The notes beneath the pieces are model-generated. The model was given only the letters and a program-made list of their open reading frames with translations, was not told the origin of the DNA and did no database searches. The position numbers were made by a program, and so were the translations under genes. From UHGV virus genome UHGV-0168127: a stretch of 18,811 nucleotides of DNA; one strand, written 5' to 3'. Position 1 is the stretch's first letter. Each line of letters begins with the position of its first letter. This DNA comes from a virus. This document shows, one piece after another, positions 1 through 18,761 of the stretch.

Positions 1-57
1 TTGATTGGAATGATGTTTTTTAGATGTGAAAAATATTTTACCCGCTATTTTACCCAT
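1..57 (-). CDS. N-terminal fragment of an ORF running off the window start (MGKIAGKIFFTSKKHHSNQ...), identity unknown
   Basis: ATG at 57..55 on the - strand overlaps the stop of the excisionase-like gene (ATGGGTAA arrangement); open to position 1. An integrase would be expected here but the 19 visible residues are not diagnostic. Confidence 0.2.
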   Translation of the reverse strand, partial: MGKIAGKIFFTSKKHHSNQ

Positions 58-250
58 TGGCGCGGCTTAAGAGCTTATTTTTGAATTCACAATGGTCACG
101 ATATAACCATCTTGCTCGTCCGTGGATAACTTTGGCTTTTGGCAGGTCGCCGGACTTAATCCGGTCGTAGATGAAGGTTTTACCAAAGCCAGTATCGGCC
201 ATGATGAATTTCAAATCAACCAGTGAATCAGGCTGTAGTTCGTGTTGCAT
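50..250 (-). CDS. Excisionase-like small winged-helix DNA-binding protein (TorI/AlpA-type recombination directionality factor)
   Basis: 66-aa ORF from the track; size and basic helix-turn-wing region (GKTFIYDRIKSGDLPKAKVIHGRARWLYRDH) fit phage excisionases; sits at the distal end of the leftward operon after an intrinsic terminator. Family named from memory. Confidence 0.55.
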   Translation of the reverse strand: MQHELQPDSLVDLKFIMADTGFGKTFIYDRIKSGDLPKAKVIHGRARWLYRDHCEFKNKLLSRANG

Positions 251-292: not shown

Positions 293-320
293 AATAAAAA
301 ACCGCCATCAGACGGCTTGG
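293..320 (-). terminator. Intrinsic terminator-like hairpin plus T-run downstream of the left 55-aa gene
   Basis: On the - strand: GCCGTCTGATGGCGG hairpin (with G-U pairs) followed by TTTTTTATT; homologous position to the perfect hairpin at 17444..17468. Confidence 0.4.
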
Positions 321-475
321 TGTTCTTTCAGTTCTTCAATTCGAATATTGGTTACGTCTGCATGTGCTATCTGCGCCCACAGCATCCAGTGGTCATAGCA
401 GTCGTTGATGTTCTCTGCTTCGATAACTTTGTTGAATGGCTCTCCATTCCATTCACCTGTGACTCGGAAGTGCAT
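308..475 (-). CDS. Small conserved 55-aa lambdoid protein (left copy), function unknown
   Basis: Manual translation MHFRVTGEWNGEPFNKVIEAENINDCYDHWMLWAQIAHADVTNIRIEELKEHQAV; GGAG RBS 7 nt upstream of the ATG; about 90% identical to the 55-aa ORF at 17288..17455. Missed by the ORF track (below 60 aa); the track ORF 242..490 (+) is its antisense shadow. Confidence 0.6.
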   Translation of the reverse strand: MHFRVTGEWNGEPFNKVIEAENINDCYDHWMLWAQIAHADVTNIRIEELKEHQAV

Positions 476-485
476 TTATCATCTC

Positions 486-513
486 CATAAAACAAAACTC
501 GCCGTAGCGAGTT
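486..513 (-). terminator. Hairpin plus T-rich tract upstream of the 55-aa gene (terminator-like)
   Basis: On the - strand AACTCGC-TACG-GCGAGTT (7-bp stem) followed by TTGTTTTATGG; conserved in the right copy near 17250..17275. Confidence 0.35.
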
Positions 514-563
514 CAGATAAAAGAAATCCCCGCGAGTGCGAGGATAGTTACTTGTTCATATTA

Positions 564-3176: not shown

Positions 3177-3337
3177 TTCTTCCCACTCCGCAACATCGCA
3201 TTCAGATATTTGTTTTGATTCACTGATGGAAAATAATTTCTCTTTAGCAATTCCTCTCTCGATGGCATTGGCTTTACGCGTTGGCGAATAATCATTTCTG
3301 CCGGAAGAATGCCGGGATTGTATGCAAGACCTCTCAT
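3173..3337 (-). CDS. Hypothetical small protein (54 aa)
   Basis: Manual [57 protein letters not shown]; AAAGAGGAA RBS; its stop overlaps the start of the Ea22-like gene (ATGA). Confidence 0.3.
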
Positions 3338-3353
3338 GGTAAATTCCTCTTTG

Positions 3354-3668
3354 TTAATTTATTCGTATGCCTGCTCTTTCTTCATCGAGTTTTTTTAGCT
3401 TGTATCGCATAGCTCTTACTGAATAAATTGAGCGGCAGGTTGCAATTGCTATTTCTTCTGCAGAGAACTTACCGAAAAGTGATACTTCGGCTCTTGTCCA
3501 TCGTCTTCCACGAAGTCGGCTAACAATGTCAGCTCCAATCCTTGTTGCTTTCGCCATTACTGCTTTTTCAGTCCTTTCCAGTTTTTCAGCGATAACTTCA
3601 ACTGGCATTGTTGCCGCTACTTCTCGCAAGAAATCGACTTCCCATTTCTCCCAAGGAGTCTTTTTCAT
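3354..3668 (-). CDS. Hypothetical protein (104 aa), possibly DNA-binding
   Basis: Track ORF with a two-fold internal repeat around conserved Trp/Arg positions; no confident family assignment. Confidence 0.4.
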
Positions 3669-3679
3669 AGGCGATACCG

Positions 3680-4168
3680 TTATTTGATAAGAAGTGAAGG
3701 TTTCCCAACTTTGAGTTGAGCGCCGGGGATATTTATTCCTGCTTTTAGTTGGTGTTTGATTGCCAGTTTGTCGGCTTTAATTGTCGTTTCAAACTCAACG
3801 TATTCAGGAGGAATGGCGCTTGCGTCGATGATTTCTACAATTTCTGACGGTTTGCGGATTGTTACCTGGTGAATACCTGCTCGAATATTTTTCTTGCCAA
3901 CCATTTCAAGCGATGACGCTATATATGATTTGATGCTGTCAATCTTATTTTGGATTACTGCGGCTCGCTCATTCAGTGACTTTGCCTCTTCCTTGAGGCG
4001 TTCAGCATAACCAGATTCATTTTTAATAATGGCAAGAAGTTGCTCTATTTTATCGGTAAATTCTCCTTCCATGCCTTCTATTGTGTCAGCAATCATCTCT
4101 GGTTCTAAATCTGAATCCATCAATTTTGCGTATTCATTGGCAATTTCATACAGTTTGCTCACTGGCAA
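3680..4168 (-). CDS. Siphovirus Gp157-family protein (162 aa)
   Basis: Length and acidic N-terminal helix followed by a K-rich coiled coil match the Gp157 family; overlaps and is co-oriented with the RecT gene as in other RecT modules. Confidence 0.65.
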   Translation of the reverse strand: MPVSKLYEIANEYAKLMDSDLEPEMIADTIEGMEGEFTDKIEQLLAIIKNESGYAERLKEEAKSLNERAAVIQNKIDSIKSYIASSLEMVGKKNIRAGIHQVTIRKPSEIVEIIDASAIPPEYVEFETTIKADKLAIKHQLKAGINIPGAQLKVGKPSLLIK

Positions 4169-5057
4169 CCTCCAGTTTCGCTTTGCATTCTATGTAAATG
4201 GCTTGTACGTTCTGCTGCAATTTCATTCCAGATGTCAGGCGATATGCTTCTGCAAAATATCGCTTCAAATCATCCATGTTTTCTGCCTGAGCCATTTCAT
4301 CGCAAAGAAGTTGTGCTTTATCCATTATTTCCTGCTGGCGTTTCCGTTCATCTTCGCGGATATCTTCCTCTGATTTGTGCGGCATAACTGGTTCGGTCCA
4401 CACGCCTTCTTCTTCGTTTAGTACGTGAATAGCACTATCAAGGCGTGATGCCTTAGGCCAATACTTGCTTGCACGCTTTACGACTGTCTTTCGCGCCATC
4501 TCATTCCAGTGATTTACCCATGGTCCTTTATCGCTGAATGCCGCCTTGCTTGTTTTCCTTACAGCCTCAATTTCAGCCAGACTCATCTCTTCCGTTAGAT
4601 AATCACCTGCTGGCGTCTTAACTGTGCAGTAAACGCCAACGATATCACCACGGTCACCGAAGGCGTTGTATTTATGGGTTGGTGCTTTATCAAGCCCGTT
4701 TGACTCATAGGTATCGTTAGCATGAACAAGTTTTGCCTGACCCCATGAGATAACACCAGACTCCATTGCAATATGGAGCAATCCCATATAGCTGATATCA
4801 AGGCACACCATGCCGTCGCGAGGAACCAGATAAGCCAGTTTGCTGGCCGGGTTTAAGGTGATGCCGATCGCCGCAACATTGATGATGGCGTTCTGTGCGC
4901 TGGTTGGATTTGCCAGTGCTGTTTTAGCCAGGTAATCGTTTTTCTGGAAATACTGAATTGCAAACTGGCTTTCCTTAGCCCATGTCACCGTCTGTTCAGT
5001 CAATGCTCCGCAGAATAACTGCTCCTGCTGTTTAACGAATTCAACGATATTGCTCAT
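4146..5057 (-). CDS. recT: RecT-family single-strand annealing recombinase (303 aa)
   Basis: GPWVNHWNEMARKTVVKRASKYWP closely resembles the conserved RecT segment GPWVTHWEEMAKKTAIRRLFKYLP; gene sits where lambda has bet. Confidence 0.8.
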   Translation of the reverse strand: MSNIVEFVKQQEQLFCGALTEQTVTWAKESQFAIQYFQKNDYLAKTALANPTSAQNAIINVAAIGITLNPASKLAYLVPRDGMVCLDISYMGLLHIAMESGVISWGQAKLVHANDTYESNGLDKAPTHKYNAFGDRGDIVGVYCTVKTPAGDYLTEEMSLAEIEAVRKTSKAAFSDKGPWVNHWNEMARKTVVKRASKYWPKASRLDSAIHVLNEEEGVWTEPVMPHKSEEDIREDERKRQQEIMDKAQLLCDEMAQAENMDDLKRYFAEAYRLTSGMKLQQNVQAIYIECKAKLEVASEQTV

Positions 5058-7453: not shown

Positions 7454-7475
7454 AAAAAACCCGCCGTGGCGGGTC
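7454..7475 (-). terminator. Intrinsic terminator inside the leftward operon
   Basis: On the - strand GACCCGCC-AC-GGCGGGT hairpin directly followed by TTTTTTCAT, immediately after the stop of the 7477..7797 gene. Confidence 0.45.
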
Positions 7476-7476
7476 T

Positions 7477-7806: not shown

Positions 7807-7835
7807 AAAAAAATTGCCCTCACACTGGAGGGCAA
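7807..7835 (-). terminator. Terminator-like hairpin plus T-run just upstream of the acidic-protein gene
   Basis: On the - strand TTGCCCTC-CAGTGT-GAGGGCAA (8-bp stem) followed by TTTTTTT. Confidence 0.35.
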
Positions 7836-8422: not shown

Positions 8423-8463
8423 CTCTGTTGTTTATGCCAAAAATAAAGGCCGACTATTCGGCC

Positions 8464-8631
8464 TTAAAATCCTGAATATTCGCGAAGAGATTCGATAATT
8501 TCCTCGCAGTCGATAAGTAGTTCGTCAGGTTCATCTTCTCGATTTTTAAGTGCCTCAATGTTCCCAGCTAACTGGCGAAGCATCATTGCTTGCCATTCAG
8601 GGTCGAAGCTGTCTGGTATTTCAATTTCCAT
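8464..8631 (-). CDS. Hypothetical acidic small protein (55 aa)
   Basis: Manual ORF MEIEIPDSFDPEWQAMMLRQLAGNIEALKNREDEPDELLIDCEEIIESLREYSGF with GAGGTG RBS; missed by the track (below 60 aa). Confidence 0.35.
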   Translation of the reverse strand: MEIEIPDSFDPEWQAMMLRQLAGNIEALKNREDEPDELLIDCEEIIESLREYSGF

Positions 8632-8693: not shown

Positions 8694-8918
8694 TCATAAT
8701 TCACTCTTCAATACTTCCAACTTACTAATCGCCGATAGATATCCGCGCTGATAGGGCATCATCATTCCTTCGAGCTTGCCACTTCTTAACTCCTCCCTGA
8801 GCAATTGTATTGCTTGATCAATAACCTCTGCCTTAGCGTCCTTTATGGCTTGCTTGCGGGGCTTTGCTTTCTGCTTTGGCAGATTTCTCAAGCATGATGG
8901 AATGTATGTCTGAGTCAT
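8694..8918 (-). CDS. First gene of the leftward operon: small basic protein (74 aa), candidate N-analogous antiterminator, function unproven
   Basis: AAGAGGA RBS upstream of the ATG at 8918; K/R-rich N-terminal stretch (LRNLPKQKAKPRKQAIKDAK); first ORF downstream of the OL region. No similarity to lambda or P22 N that I can recognise. Confidence 0.35.
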   Translation of the reverse strand: MTQTYIPSCLRNLPKQKAKPRKQAIKDAKAEVIDQAIQLLREELRSGKLEGMMMPYQRGYLSAISKLEVLKSEL

Positions 8919-9240
8919 AAAAAATCCTCTTGTGATTCAGCCCAGCCCACTCAACTTCGAATGGACTGGAATAAATCTGTTTGCGCTTCGCACCTCTCAT
9001 CCCGCCAGTGTTGCCCGTTCCCACGCCTTTATCGCTCTCGCGAGGGGGTAGCCTCACACCGACCGGATCGCGCCCGGTGCTGCGCCGAATTTGTACGTTG
9101 GGGTCTAAACAGGATTACTGAGTGCTGTTCCGACTTTGCATGTTGTTAAAAAGCAGGCGACTTGCTGTCCGCCGCTGGCTAACTTCGCTCAGCTGTCGAT
9201 GTTTCGTTTCGATGGATTGATAATAGCGATGAGTATTGTT

Positions 9241-9282
9241 TATAGCAATACGTATTGATATTAAATAATAGCAATTGCTATT
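9241..9282. promoter_or_regulatory. OL-like operator cluster (pL region)
   Basis: Perfect palindromes CAATACGTATTG (9246..9257) and AATAGCAATTGCTATT (9267..9282), built from the same half-sites as the operators between cI and cro. Confidence 0.5.
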
Positions 9283-9393
9283 AATGCGTTGATAGCTAAA
9301 GGAATTTATTTGGATATTTTTTCGCGGGATTGAGATTCAGATCGTTTTTTTACTGCGGCGGGTATTGCTGTGACGAATGGGCTGGCTGCGGGC

Positions 9394-9420
9394 AATAAAA
9401 AACCCAGCACTATGGCTGGG
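9394..9420 (-). terminator. Intrinsic terminator downstream of cI
   Basis: On the - strand CCCAGC-CATAGT-GCTGGG perfect hairpin followed by TTTTTTATT, about 22 nt after the cI stop. Confidence 0.55.
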
Positions 9421-9441
9421 CTTGATTCATAGCTGGGTTTG

Positions 9442-10146
9442 TTAACCGTGTTTTCTGTATGTCTGAGGCATGCTACCAATCACCTTGCCGAATATGAGTA
9501 TCCTGTTCATTTCTTCTTTTTCGATTGGCTCCCACGGGCGATAAGTCTGATTGTCGGAGATGACCAACAGCTTATCTTTCATCTTCTGGAGGCGTTTAAC
9601 GTGGGAAGTATCGTCGTAGATAAAGGCGTAGATCCCGTCACCATCAAAATGTTGGACGCTGATGTCGACGAACAATAAGTCGCCTGGTTCAATGGTCCCG
9701 GACATGCTGTCTCCGCGAACATTAATGATTCTGATCTGCTCAGCCTTCCTGCCATTAAACATCCGACGAGCATCTTCCACTGAGTATTCCACGGATCTAA
9801 GCACCTCTACAAATTCGCTGTTGATGGCTCCTGGCCCGGCGCTTACGTAAAAGTCTAGCGCCTCAATGCGGAATGTGTCAGTAGGGGCCAGCTCTGTTTT
9901 CGGCTGCGAAATTGCGGGCATTTGACCATCTTCACGCATTGGGCCAACTCCGGTTGAAAGCCACTCAGTGCGAACGCCAAGCGCATTGGCGATCTCAACG
10001 ATTTTAGTTGAGCCTCGGGCATTGCCACTGGTCAGCCTCCAGATGGTGGGTTGAGCAACGCCAGACGCCTTAGCTAAAGCGCCCTGAGACATGCCAGATA
10101 GTTCCATCGCCTGATTCAGGCGTTCTGCAAGAGTTTCTTTTTTCAT
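9442..10146 (-). CDS. cI: CI-type repressor: N-terminal HTH plus C-terminal S24 (LexA-like) autopeptidase domain
   Basis: Track ORF trimmed to the ATG at 10146 (MKKETLAERL...); HTH segment MSQGALAKASGVAQPTIWRL; GDSM and KRL motifs consistent with a Ser/Lys catalytic dyad; divergent from the cro-like gene across an operator region. Confidence 0.85.
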   Translation of the reverse strand: MKKETLAERLNQAMELSGMSQGALAKASGVAQPTIWRLTSGNARGSTKIVEIANALGVRTEWLSTGVGPMREDGQMPAISQPKTELAPTDTFRIEALDFYVSAGPGAINSEFVEVLRSVEYSVEDARRMFNGRKAEQIRIINVRGDSMSGTIEPGDLLFVDISVQHFDGDGIYAFIYDDTSHVKRLQKMKDKLLVISDNQTYRPWEPIEKEEMNRILIFGKVIGSMPQTYRKHG

Positions 10147-10257: not shown

Positions 10258-10485
10258 ATGACGAACAAAACAATCCAGCGCGCCATTGATATCGCTGGTA
10301 GCCAGAAGAAATTAGCCGACCTTTGCGGCGTTGCTCAGCCGACGGTATGGCGCTGGTTGCACGGCGGCGGCATTGATGCCCGCTACGTAATGAAGATTGT
10401 CACTGCAACAAACGGCAAGCTAAAACCAGCAGATATCCGTCCAGACCTCGCCCAGCTGCTTGAGGCGAATAACACAGCCGCTTAA
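10258..10485 (+). CDS. cro: Cro-like HTH regulator (75 aa)
   Basis: Track ORF 10165..10485 trimmed to the ATG at 10258; HTH segment SQKKLADLCGVAQPTVWRWLHG; divergent from cI. Confidence 0.6.
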   Translation: MTNKTIQRAIDIAGSQKKLADLCGVAQPTVWRWLHGGGIDARYVMKIVTATNGKLKPADIRPDLAQLLEANNTAA

Positions 10486-10514: not shown

Positions 10515-11081
10515 ATGCATTCACTTGCGTATCAACAGAGTACCGGACTTGAACAACGTCCGTTGATTTCGATTTATCAAAGTGTTCCGCGTAATAACCG
10601 TAAGCTAATTCGAATACGGGATGCAGTTAAGGCCTGGCAAAAAGCTACGCCGGGCCAGTCTCAGGTTCACATTTCTCAGCTGGTTGCGAAAGAGTGGCTG
10701 GCGCGCGGCGGGAAGGGGTTGTTACTGGCAGGTTCTGAACACAACACGAAGCAGAACTTCTTCCGGATGATTAACGATCCGGGCCCGAAGAACGACAAGG
10801 GGTTGATGCTACTGATCCCCGTCATTATCGACGTGATGGCGCGGGATAACGAGAAAGTGGCGAGAGAGTTCGGTCTGGTCGCAAAGACTGAGGCCGAACT
10901 GATAGCCGAGGCCATGAAAGAGTGCACTGAAGCGCATCAGGCGAAGTTACTTGGTCAGCCGATACAACGCCTTGAGAAAGAGGTGAGAGAAGCTGCTGAA
11001 GCACTTCTGCGCTTTCTGCCCACTGAATCAATCGCCGCGGTGGTGACAAGTCTGGCCGCTATGGCGCCGGGAGTTATGTGA
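10515..11081 (+). CDS. Early regulator at the cII position (188 aa), possibly YdaT/CII-like; function unassigned
   Basis: Immediately follows cro in the rightward operon; far larger than lambda CII; no motif I can assign with confidence. Confidence 0.4.
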   Translation: MHSLAYQQSTGLEQRPLISIYQSVPRNNRKLIRIRDAVKAWQKATPGQSQVHISQLVAKEWLARGGKGLLLAGSEHNTKQNFFRMINDPGPKNDKGLMLLIPVIIDVMARDNEKVAREFGLVAKTEAELIAEAMKECTEAHQAKLLGQPIQRLEKEVREAAEALLRFLPTESIAAVVTSLAAMAPGVM

Positions 11082-17129: not shown

Positions 17130-17215
17130 TGTGGCCTATATGTGTTAATTGCGGACGGATGTGCCTATCTGGATGGTGCCGAAAGTGCGACAAATGCACG
17201 AAGCAAAGACAATAA
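17126..17215 (+). CDS. Cysteine-rich 29-aa peptide (zinc-ribbon-like)
   Basis: Manual ORF MMWPICVNCGRMCLSGWCRKCDKCTKQRQ with six cysteines in CxxC-like spacing; ATGA overlap with the upstream stop. Confidence 0.3.
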   Translation: MMWPICVNCGRMCLSGWCRKCDKCTKQRQ

Positions 17216-17287
17216 CAATCCTCGCACTCGCGGGGATTTCTTTTATCTGAACTCGCTACGGCGGGTTTTGTTTTATGGAGATGATAA

Positions 17288-17455
17288 ATGCACTTTCGAG
17301 TCACAGGTGAATGGAATGGAGAACCATTCAACAGGGTTATCGAAGCAGAGGACTTCAACGACTGCTATGACCACTGGATGATATGGGCGCAGATAGCACA
17401 TGCAGACGTAACCAATATTCGAATTGAAGAACTGAAAGAACACAAAACCGCCTGA
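17288..17455 (+). CDS. Small conserved 55-aa lambdoid protein (right copy), function unknown
   Basis: Manual ORF MHFRVTGEWNGEPFNRVIEAEDFNDCYDHWMIWAQIAHADVTNIRIEELKEHKTA; GGAG RBS; lies inside the 255-bp inverted repeat. Confidence 0.6.
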   Translation: MHFRVTGEWNGEPFNRVIEAEDFNDCYDHWMIWAQIAHADVTNIRIEELKEHKTA

Positions 17456-17468
17456 TGGCGGTTTTTTC
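17444..17468 (+). terminator. Rho-independent terminator between the 55-aa gene and xis
   Basis: AAAACCGCC-TGAT-GGCGGTTTT perfect 9-bp stem followed by TTTTTTC. Confidence 0.6.
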
Positions 17469-17494
17469 TTGCGTGTAATTGCGGAGACTTTGCG

Positions 17495-17713
17495 ATGTAC
17501 TTAACACTTCAGGAGTGGAACGCACGCCAGCGGCGCCCAAGAAGCCTTGAAACAGTTCGTCGATGGGTACGCGAGTGCAGGATATTCCCTCCTCCGGTTA
17601 AGGATGGAAGAGAGTATCTGTTCCACGAATCAGCGGTAAAGGTTGACTTAAATCGACCAGTAACAGGTAGCCTTTTGAAGAGGATCAGAAATGGGAAGAA
17701 GGCGAAGTCATGA
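17495..17713 (+). CDS. xis: Lambda-type excisionase Xis (72 aa)
   Basis: Translation MYLTLQEWNARQRRPRSLETVRRWVRECRIFPPPVKDG... matches phage lambda Xis as I recall it; overlaps the int start as in lambda. Confidence 0.9.
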   Translation: MYLTLQEWNARQRRPRSLETVRRWVRECRIFPPPVKDGREYLFHESAVKVDLNRPVTGSLLKRIRNGKKAKS

Positions 17714-18761
17714 GCGCCGGGATTTACCCCCTAACCTTTATATAAGAAACAATGGATATTACTGCTACAGGGACCCAAGGACGGGTAAAGAGTTCGGATT
17801 AGGCAGAGACAGGAGGATAGCAATTACTGAAGCAATACAGGCAAACATTGAGTTATTTTCAGGACACAAACACAAGCCTCTGACAGCAAGAATCAACAGT
17901 GATAATTCTGTTACGTTACATTCATGGCTTGATCGCTACGAAAAAATCCTGGCCAGCAGAGGAATCAAGCAGAAGACACTCATAAATTACATGAGCAAAA
18001 TTAAAGCAATAAGGAGGGGTCTGCCTGATGCTCCACTTGAAGACATCACCACAAAAGAAATTGCGGCAATGCTCAATGGATACATAGACGAGGGCAAGGC
18101 GGCGTCAGCCAAGTTAATCAGATCAACACTGAGCGATGCATTCCGAGAGGCAATAGCTGAAGGCCATATAACAACAAACCCGGTCGCTGCCACTCGCGCA
18201 GCAAAATCAGAGGTAAGGAGATCAAGACTTACAGCTGACGAATACCTGAAAATTTATCAAGCAGCAGAATCATCACCATGTTGGCTCAGACTTGCAATGG
18301 AACTGGCTGTTGTTACCGGGCAACGAGTCGGTGATTTATGCGAAATGAAGTGGTCTGATATCGTAGATGGATATCTTTATGTCGAGCAAAGCAAAACAGG
18401 CGTAAAAATTGCCATCCCAACAGCATTGCATGTTGATGCTCTCGGGATATCAATGAAGGAAACACTTGATAAATGCAAAGAGATTCTTGGTGGAGAAACC
18501 ATAATTGCATCTACTCGTCGTGAACCGCTTTCATCCGGCACAGTATCAAGGTATTTTATGCGCGCACGAAAAGCATCAGGTCTTTCCTTCGAAGGGGATC
18601 CGCCTACCTTTCACGAGTTGCGCAGTTTGTCTGCAAGACTCTATGAGAAGCAGATAAGCGATAAGTTTGCTCAACATCTTCTCGGGCATAAGTCGGACAC
18701 CATGGCATCACAGTATCGTGATGACAGAGGCAGGGAGTGGGACAAAATTGAAATCAAATAA
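17691..18761 (+). CDS. int: Lambda-type tyrosine integrase Int (356 aa)
   Basis: Translation MGRRRSHERRDLPPNLYIRNNGYYCYRDPRTGKEFGLGRDRRIAITEAIQ... essentially matches lambda Int from memory, including the C-terminal catalytic region (HELRSLSARLY...LLGHKSDTMASQY). Confidence 0.95.
   Translation: MGRRRSHERRDLPPNLYIRNNGYYCYRDPRTGKEFGLGRDRRIAITEAIQANIELFSGHKHKPLTARINSDNSVTLHSWLDRYEKILASRGIKQKTLINYMSKIKAIRRGLPDAPLEDITTKEIAAMLNGYIDEGKAASAKLIRSTLSDAFREAIAEGHITTNPVAATRAAKSEVRRSRLTADEYLKIYQAAESSPCWLRLAMELAVVTGQRVGDLCEMKWSDIVDGYLYVEQSKTGVKIAIPTALHVDALGISMKETLDKCKEILGGETIIASTRREPLSSGTVSRYFMRARKASGLSFEGDPPTFHELRSLSARLYEKQISDKFAQHLLGHKSDTMASQYRDDRGREWDKIEIK

Follow-up and report, generated by a model that had tools for sequence, protein, structure and literature searches.

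Two forms of early antitermination are known in lambdoid phages: the N protein, which acts on nut sites, and put of HK022 and related phages, an RNA that works without a protein. Analysis of an 18,811-nt stretch of viral DNA (UHGV virus genome UHGV-0168127, in the following referred to as the window), which comprises the immunity and early region of a lambdoid Escherichia coli prophage, revealed that the leader of the leftward operon is a conserved, non-coding structured RNA and not a collection of chance hairpins. A boxA of the type found in ribosomal RNA (rrn) operons is followed in this leader by a folded domain of 113 nt. Judged from sequence comparisons, the leader RNA probably adds to N/nut and put a third type of read-through signal in phages, one not described before. 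The reading that we favour, by a modest preference, is that the leader encodes a putative cis-acting processive antitermination module doing the job of nutL, which would be related neither to put nor to classical nut.

The untranslated leader extends over about 295 nt from the predicted start of leftward transcription at pL (around position 9213, minus strand) to the first gene of the operon, an open reading frame (ORF) for 74 amino acids (8694-8918, minus strand). This arrangement had been noticed in a first-pass annotation, which called the leader unusually long and GC-rich, and the 74-aa ORF in first position behind a long untranslated leader was confirmed. With a G+C content of 53.9%, and 58% in the core (8989-9162), compared to 48.4% in the window, the leader is indeed GC-rich, but a length of this order is not exceptional among lambdoid pL operons, since the leader of lambda N is similar in this respect (about 220 nt). 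The annotation had also listed several potential stem-loops. Folded as a single sequence, the leader was modestly better than shuffled versions (z = -2.1; 8 of 200 shuffles were as good), and because shuffles are barely beaten, the leader sequence alone proves no structure. The evidence had to come from comparisons.

Blast searches of phage genomes with the leader detected relatives in phi80 (84% identity), HK225, the Klebsiella phages KO-TP1 and ST13-OXA48phi12.2, Providencia phage PSTCR7lys, Edwardsiella phage Edno5, the APSE phages of the aphid symbiont Hamiltonella, and about 100 Stx2a-type phages of the TL-2011c/P13374 (O104:H4) kind. In these relatives, the element is always located in unannotated intergenic DNA where the leftward early operon begins, behind either the repressor gene or the promoter. 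Further members were sought with a DNA pattern derived from unpaired conserved positions of the domain, from which boxA was left out. At least 120 loci were found by this pattern in viral contigs. When one genome per species was scanned, 24 of 57 pattern matches were genuine, all of them in Enterobacterales (Escherichia, Enterobacter, Kosakonia, Kluyvera, Huaxiibacter, Xenorhabdus, Arsenophonus, and Phlomobacter). Among 5426 complete RefSeq genomes of E. coli, 126 carry the element, including DH5alpha-type strains by way of their phi80 segment, and nothing is annotated by PGAP over the identical copies in E. coli genomes. Searches of Rfam gave no match in the whole window at gathering thresholds, and with permissive filters only noise (E above 2) was obtained in 8850-9300. 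No description of this RNA was found in the literature searched, which did not extend to the original phi80 papers.

One of the copies in E. coli deserves separate mention. In strain 730V1 (O19:H7; locus L194, 11001-11296), a leader of 296 nt is 100% identical to that of the window, again without PGAP annotation. The prophage there has a phi80-like immunity region, but quite different genes are located downstream (Nmad5, kil, RecE, RecT). Since an identical leader precedes quite different genes, it evidently travels as a mosaic module of its own.

Alignments of the relatives provide the evidence for the fold. The consensus structure obtained with RNAalifold defines a core, helices P1 to P5 (9001..9113, minus strand, as all positions in this paragraph), which begins about 30 nt after boxA and covers the 113-nt domain 9113..9001. 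P1 (9113..9108 with 9006..9001, CCUGUU with GGCRGG) and P2 (9102..9100 with 9016..9014, CCC with GGG) close a junction carrying three hairpins: P3 (9097..9086), which corresponds to the annotated 'nutL core' of phi80, P4 (9085..9051), whose loop contains an invariant CGAUC, and P5 (9048..9021), usually with a GAGA tetraloop. The loop of P3 varies among the relatives (UAAA, AAAA, CAAAU, AUAAAA, or AUGAAA). In a MAFFT alignment of 32 representatives, which was not fitted to the structure, 95.4% of the cells are paired, compared to 32-43% in slid controls; compensatory changes were detected in 23 of 33 pairs, and in 500 shuffles none was as good on four of five measures. An alignment of 100 matches (72 distinct) made with a covariance model gave 97.2% paired cells versus 35-42% in slid controls, with compensatory changes again in 23 of 33 pairs and, for the 72 distinct sequences, no shuffle out of 500 as good on four of the five measures. 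The window itself matches the covariance model (R1) at 8989..9162 with 177 bits and an E-value of about 1e-38 over model positions 1-173. As the window sequence is part of the R1 seed alignment, this match is obtained by construction, but loci outside the seed (e.g. L045, L148, L175, and L182) match equally well. The stem-loops suspected in the first-pass annotation are therefore real, and it is the comparative evidence, not single-sequence folding, that establishes them. The possibility that the element encodes a protein was ruled out by stop codons in all six frames in 26 of the 32 sequences and by insertions/deletions of 1, 2 and 5 nt that break the frame.

Some pairings outside or competing with the core were also considered. 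The outer limits of the domain (8989..9124, minus strand) include a possible extension of P1, GCAC.. with ..GUGC. Compared to shuffles, leaders of the phi80 type form a strong extension duplex (CAGCGUCAAU with GUUGGCGCUG; z about -4), whereas the duplex is weak in the window type (about -0.6) and broken in HK225 (0), and it was dropped from the core. The element of HK225 (L002, 2560-2728) is a chimera, whose 5' half resembles phi80 and whose 3' half resembles the window. Because the halves come from different types, the outer extension of P1 cannot form there. A local hairpin AACAG/CUGUU, which would compete with P1, was rejected as a conserved feature, since it is not kept in Edno5, where P1 survives by four compensatory changes; a switch between this local hairpin and P1 is possible.

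The domain is connected to a boxA on its 5' side, which had escaped the first-pass annotation. The boxA of the window, TGCTTTTTAACAA (9143..9155, minus strand), matches the E. coli rrn boxA TGCTCTTTAACAA, whose consensus is well established, at 12 of 13 positions. It is the only match in the 18.8-kb window with one mismatch at most (9155..9143), and in relatives such as APSE-1 and P13374 all 13 positions agree. The window element also conforms to the consensus boxA UGCUCUUUAACAA, and GCUCUUUAACAA is retained in relatives from Xenorhabdus, Arsenophonus, and Enterobacter. In every genuine element retrieved by the boxA-free pattern, a boxA is present 32-37 nt upstream of GACCC, while chance matches, which came from GC-rich genomes, are devoid of it. 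Since boxA was not part of the pattern, its recovery in all genuine elements is an independent check, and boxA and the domain are regarded as one unit. Directly abutting boxA on its 5' side, the hairpin GGCGGACAGCAAGUCGCC (9173..9156, minus strand) is predicted by folding, and reading of the sequences showed a hairpin at the same place in APSE-1, Edno5, and probably P13374. The 5' part of the leader (9156..9213, minus strand) is identical in phi80, HK225, and KO-TP1 according to the alignment. In some relatives only, boxC-like GU-rich stretches resembling GUGUGC follow the domain. For the rrn boxA, NusB:NusE shows a dissociation constant of about 5-8 nM versus 80-90 nM for the boxA of lambda, that is, roughly tenfold tighter binding (PMC2800207). 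The order of hairpin and then boxA is that of rrn leaders, unlike that of lambda (PMC8632103).

The element is present as a single copy. With filters off, the model search gave exactly one match in the window and one for each related phage region. Over 100 loci (0.95 Mb, with loci of about 2-15 kb), exactly 100 matches were obtained.

A function of the RNA is suggested by the modules with which it is exchanged. The 74-aa protein, which starts with MTQTYIPSCLRNLPKQKAKPRKQ and is lysine-rich in its N-terminal half, has no Pfam match, and its sole PHROG match is phrog_5305, a family of unknown function. Genes of this family (91-99% DNA identity) are located behind different leaders in other phages. 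In mEpX2, boxA and a boxB hairpin of the classical kind come after pL; they are followed by the gene of an N-like protein (87 aa, phrog_271, related to HK620 N and P22 gp24), which contains an arginine-rich motif, and by the 74-aa gene. In APC_JM3.2, pL is followed by a putL of the HK022 type, then by a scar in which the 3' end of an N gene is left, and then by the 74-aa gene; in the window, the order is pL, boxA-linked RNA, and 74-aa gene. Three modules are thus found in one slot before the same gene family: boxA-boxB with an N-like protein, putL, and the boxA-linked RNA. As two of the three are established antitermination devices, antitermination is suggested for the third as well, and this is the strongest argument for such a role. 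The scar in APC_JM3.2 (L191, about 1892-1970), which retains the last ~75 nt of the N gene when compared with positions 1920-1997 of mEpX2 (L192), looks like the trace of a recombination by which putL replaced the N/nutL module.

The same comparison decides on the protein encoded by the first gene. Since its family follows a genuine N in mEpX2 and putL in APC_JM3.2, the 74-aa protein is not an N analogue: in mEpX2 the family comes second, after the N-like gene. For this protein, antitermination by an N analogue, a route considered in the first-pass annotation, is not supported. The absence of a recognisable N antiterminator, also claimed there, was borne out when profile searches were included. 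The first five ORFs of the pL operon have no Pfam match, the six ORFs tested have no N-like PHROG match, and tblastn with lambda N and the N-like protein of mEpX2 gave no match in the window. Of the three routes to expression offered by that annotation, a cis-acting RNA is now favoured, given a conserved, covarying RNA in the slot of N/nutL or putL.

No constant protein partner of the RNA emerged from the genes behind it. The 74-aa family is present in only eight of 151 element-bearing loci, and the 98-aa 'N' of phi80 only in the phi80 copies and one close relative among them; by these co-occurrence counts, both were ruled out as constant partners. Homologues of lambda-N or P22-type N occur among the carriers of the element only in the Edno5 type. 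Sequence reaching far enough downstream was available for 88 loci; in these, the ORFs next to the element belong to more than 25 unrelated families, and their distance to it ranges from about 16 to more than 450 nt. As the RNA is near constant while the genes following it vary, its partners are most likely conserved host proteins rather than a dedicated phage N.

Comparison with known systems places the element in one family with nutL of phi80, to which it is homologous and not merely analogous. Over about 210 nt, 84% of the residues are identical; the first 55 nt of the transcript are the same, boxA is the same, and all helices are common to both. Matched to the same model, the two reach similar scores, 183 bits for phi80 and 177 bits for the window. 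Differences concern the outer extension of P1, the second hairpin described below, which occurs only on the window side, and the continuation of the leader, which in phi80 runs for about 200 nt further and ends at the 98-aa 'N', a protein without homologue in the window. In the phi80 entries, a 'nutL regulatory signal' (M11919, 661-938) and 'nutL boxA' and 'nutL core' (JX871397) are annotated; the names refer to boxA and a 12-nt 'core', which is hairpin P3, and not to a 113-nt folded domain or a family. Entry M11919 is reportedly that of Tanaka and Matsushiro 1985.

The annotation of phi80 leads to another explanation, an elaborate nut site that depends on a protein. A phage antiterminator unrelated to lambda N would bind the RNA, for example at P3, and act together with Nus factors at boxA, in analogy to lambda N at boxB; the 98-aa 'N' of phi80 or some small protein from the pL operon of the window would be candidates. 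The names in the phi80 records, nutL for the region and N for the downstream ORF, speak for this explanation, as do the nut-like layout of boxA followed by hairpins and the N-like gene in the same operon of Edno5. On the other hand, the RNA is near constant while the proteins following it are unrelated, although true N/boxB pairs co-vary in specificity. In the phi80 'N' (98 aa), an arginine-rich motif is missing; the protein matches neither Pfam nor any other family, and it is confined to phi80 copies and one close relative. Moreover, P3 loops are variable, unlike a sequence-specific boxB, a nutR partner is missing from the window, and the boxB of the Edno5 nutR has no match on the pL side of that phage. 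A protein-dependent nut site is therefore considered rather unlikely.

Classical nut sites with N, as in lambda, P22, HK620, and mEpX2, resemble the boxA-linked RNA in their position just after pL, with boxA first and terminators downstream, and N and nutL of mEpX2 occupy the very slot upstream of the 74-aa gene that the element fills in the window. The nut sites of the mEp021 type are classical boxA-boxB sites, too. In these systems, however, an N homologue is expected, and none was detected in the window. Their boxB of 15 nt is located a few bases after boxA, whereas in the window a 113-nt multi-helix domain begins about 30 nt downstream and its first hairpin, P3, is found about 45 nt after boxA with a variable loop, so that it does not qualify as a boxB. 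Genuine boxB hairpins, in contrast to the window, are present in the nutR sites of mEpX2 and Edno5. In addition, boxA has the rrn consensus form in the window and the weaker form CGCUCUUA in lambda-type nut, and the paired nutL and nutR of lambda contrast with a single element without nutR copy.

The put RNA of HK022 shares with the window element its nature as a folded RNA early in the pL transcript without a recognisable dedicated protein, and in APC_JM3.2 a putL of this type takes the same position before the same gene family, so that the two are positionally interchangeable. It binds the zinc-binding domain of the beta-prime subunit of the polymerase (PMC9378689). Yet put is about 70 nt long, consists of two stems at the very 5' end, has no boxA, needs no Nus factors, and comes in two copies, while the window element is single and has a boxA. 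A short resemblance, GAACGG..CAA..CUG, had raised the possibility of homology to put, which failed in the model search and the motif search: within the immunity region of HK022, the best value reached by the element model was E = 4.4 (7.7 bits), and no match to the put motif (GAACGGC, GGAUGA) was detected in the window with up to three mismatches. The Blast relatives of putL do not include the phages bearing the element. The parallel to HK022 put drawn in the first-pass annotation thus does not hold for the RNA itself, which carries an rrn-type boxA that put does not have. The search for boxA/boxB-like or put-like elements proposed there yielded the rrn-type boxA, but neither a boxB nor a put.

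The leader of rrn operons (boxB-boxA-boxC, acting with Nus factors, SuhB, and S4; PMC8632103) has a consensus boxA and an upstream hairpin, as predicted for the window, and in both cases no dedicated phage protein is evident. Its boxA and boxC are separated by a short linker, whereas in the window a large conserved junction RNA follows boxA, and the setting is a phage early operon with intrinsic terminators. Structured RNAs of more than 100 nt with a proposed cis action on elongation and without a known dedicated protein are also represented by EAR of Bacillus eps operons. The likeness to EAR is in size and proposed role; in sequence, fold, and host range the two are unrelated, and no Rfam family, EAR included, matches the window element. 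Taken together, the element belongs to the same family as phi80 nutL and is nut- or put-like by position, but with no N, boxB, nutR, or put fold it is a member of neither group.

Obstacles to transcription are present downstream. At least three good intrinsic-terminator-like hairpins are located on the same strand within 1.8 kb of the leader; their folding energies lie between -12.5 and -15 kcal/mol, and all of them have a U run behind the stem. Two of them had been listed in the first-pass annotation and were upheld: 7814..7835 (minus strand, 7835..7814 in the direction of transcription; -13.2 kcal/mol, then U7) and 7454..7476 (minus strand, 7476..7454; -15 kcal/mol, z = -4.3, then U6). A further one was added at 8446..8465 (minus strand, 8465..8446; -12.5 kcal/mol, z = -3.5, UAUUUUU after it), between the second and third ORF of the operon. 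The terminators claimed to precede each excisionase were found as well. Three terminator-like hairpins (545..526, 514..495, and 318..299; 299..545, minus strand) are located ahead of the excisionase-like gene 50-250, and mirror copies (17217-17268, plus strand) ahead of the second excisionase (17495-17713). Among the relatives, P13374 likewise has a terminator downstream of the element, in this case before the first gene.

From these components, a mechanism may be proposed. Transcription from pL would first yield the small hairpin and the rrn-type boxA, and boxA would recruit host NusB-S10, together with NusA, NusG, and possibly SuhB. The 113-nt junction RNA (P1-P5) would be made next and would stay on the elongating polymerase, contacting it either directly, like HK022 put, or via Nus factors (NusA/NusG/SuhB). 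A polymerase modified in this way, being terminator-resistant along the operon, could pass Rho-dependent sites and the hairpins 8446-8465, 7814-7835, 7454-7476, and 299-545, and the read-through would allow recT, gam, and xis to be expressed. More tentatively, the element could define a third class of antiterminators in temperate phages of Enterobacterales that needs no phage protein, in which a consensus boxA borrows the host rRNA machinery and the junction domain, by binding the polymerase or the Nus factors, extends protection to intrinsic terminators; this more specific proposal is at present rather doubtful.

Several observations weigh against antitermination by the boxA-linked RNA as proposed here. 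The analysis established the anatomy, the fold with its covariation, the distribution, the single copy, and the module exchange, while every biochemical step is inferred, from the recruitment of Nus factors and the persistence of the RNA on the polymerase to antitermination. GenBank records label the 98-aa ORF about 200 nt past phi80 nutL as N, and if phi80 nutL is N-dependent, the RNA may need a phage protein differing between phages. Complexes of boxA and Nus factors are documented mainly against Rho (PMC7665894), while the obstacles in the window include intrinsic terminators; the junction domain must then supply an extra activity if the module is to handle these. In Edno5 (L009), the boxA-linked RNA at pL (2501-2673) coexists with gp49, an N-like protein that contains an arginine-rich motif and is encoded two ORFs downstream (3243-3563), and with a classical boxA-boxB nutR between cro and cII (756-790), so that the element and N do not strictly exclude each other. 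No second copy, as expected for a rightward operon, was detected in the window, by boxA search or unfiltered model search, or in the 100 loci, and transcription from pR must therefore manage otherwise, unlike in lambda and HK022. When terminators after the element were counted in 95 loci with an ad hoc finder, more calls were made on the opposite strand; this finder also missed tL1A of phi80. Finally, most loci were obtained with a pattern that fixes some unpaired positions, whose invariance is partly by construction; the same positions are invariant in eight aligned Blast matches, which were retrieved independently.

The leader could also act on expression or stability and not on elongation, by RNase III processing, by translational control, or as the precursor of a small RNA (sRNA) or sponge derived from the 5' untranslated region, with boxA serving as a Rho shield for the 295 nt. 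A second conserved hairpin is of importance in this context. It directly precedes the ribosome-binding site that serves the 74-aa ORF (8934..8977, minus strand; -25.4 kcal/mol, z = -5.2) and covaries in several lineages, with compensatory changes in 9 of 17 pairs in a consensus fold of nine relatives. This hairpin (8977..8934) is absent from phi80-type leaders. Together with P1 and its extension, it would be a plausible substrate for RNase III, for which the leader of lambda N is a textbook precedent. In addition, boxA alone shields untranslated RNAs from Rho (PMC7665894). With more than 25 different first genes at distances from about 16 to more than 450 nt, however, gene-specific translational control is unlikely. 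A terminator after the domain, by which an sRNA could be released, is not present, and the highly conserved unpaired nucleotides of the junction suggest a binding surface and not a mere duplex. Processing or translational control as the main role is thus improbable, somewhat more so than a protein-dependent nut site. In leaders without the second hairpin (L056, L143, L163, L171, and L173), another recurrent non-coding motif, AAAGCGGATAGACCGC, followed by a hairpin such as GCAGCAGTAATGATGCTGCCCTGAGTC, was noted about 40-120 nt after the element.

A sensor gating the leftward operon in response to a cellular signal, either a riboswitch or an attenuator responsive to a host factor or temperature, was considered last. 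The multi-helix junction with its invariant unpaired nucleotides is aptamer-like, and in P13374 a terminator is located between the element and the first gene. Conserved alternative pairings with a terminator or a ribosome-binding site are missing, though, and downstream terminators are found at variable, often long distances. An obligatory boxA is foreign to riboswitches, and no riboswitch of Rfam is matched. Such a sensor is very improbable. The region of P13374 mentioned here, an Stx2a phage from the O104:H4 outbreak (L010), also contains a site resembling a promoter, behind which the strong terminator (AGACGCGCCAGCGTCT with T7 after it) is located, at 2691-2719 and 2781-2796.

The surroundings of the leader are those of a lambdoid immunity region. 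A cI-like repressor gene with helix-turn-helix and S24 peptidase domains (9442-10146, minus strand) is followed by a terminator (9400..9423, minus strand), which bounds the immunity transcript upstream of the leftward operator (OL) and pL. An AT-rich operator region with OL repeats lies between this terminator (9423..9400) and the leader and contains the leftward promoter. In a consensus scan, a pL-like promoter was recognized at 9220..9248 (minus strand) with TTGCTA as -35 (9248..9243), a spacer of 17 nt, and TATTAT as -10 (9225..9220). The start around 9213 was set by aligning the promoter with pL as annotated in phi80, from which a transcript with the identical beginning, AUCGAAACGAAAC, is made. 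On the plus strand, a YdaS-type Cro with a clear Pfam match (10258-10485) and, in the position of CII, a YdaT-like protein with a Pfam match below the cut-off of that family (10515-11081) are encoded. YdaS and YdaT are 'toxin' families in Pfam, and the arrangement in the positions of Cro and CII is the same as the phi80-like one.

In the leftward operon, small ORFs without a known function come first, and the genes for a RecT-like protein (4146-5057), a Mu-Gam-like protein (3680-4168), and the excisionase-like protein (50-250, minus strand) follow. At the other end, the second excisionase gene (17495-17713, plus strand) is next to a gene at 17691-18761 (plus strand). Beyond O, DnaB, and ren on the right-hand side, Ea22-like genes and then xis and int are found on the plus strand, which is not the canonical lambdoid order. 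An inverted repeat of 263 nt, 94% complementary, connects 288-550 with 17213-17475 and contains paired terminator-like hairpins ahead of two different excisionase genes. The repeat and the gene order may mark a junction or an inversion between two prophage arms.

Whatever the mechanism, a widespread and strongly covarying family of phage RNAs of about 170 nt is recognized here that is absent from Rfam and from genome annotation. If the leader acts as proposed, it would reveal a way in which the genes for recombination and excision are expressed in phages lacking N, and it would offer a natural hybrid of rrn and put mechanisms for structural work and a compact read-through part for synthetic biology. 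A class independent of phage proteins would span Stx2a phages of the O104:H4 and O103:H25 outbreaks as well as the APSE phages of aphid symbionts. One carrier of the element, phi80, is a common laboratory contaminant and part of DH5alpha-type strains. The proposed function would therefore bear on early leftward expression in Stx2a phages of the O104:H4 type, in phi80, and in the aphid-protecting APSE phages.

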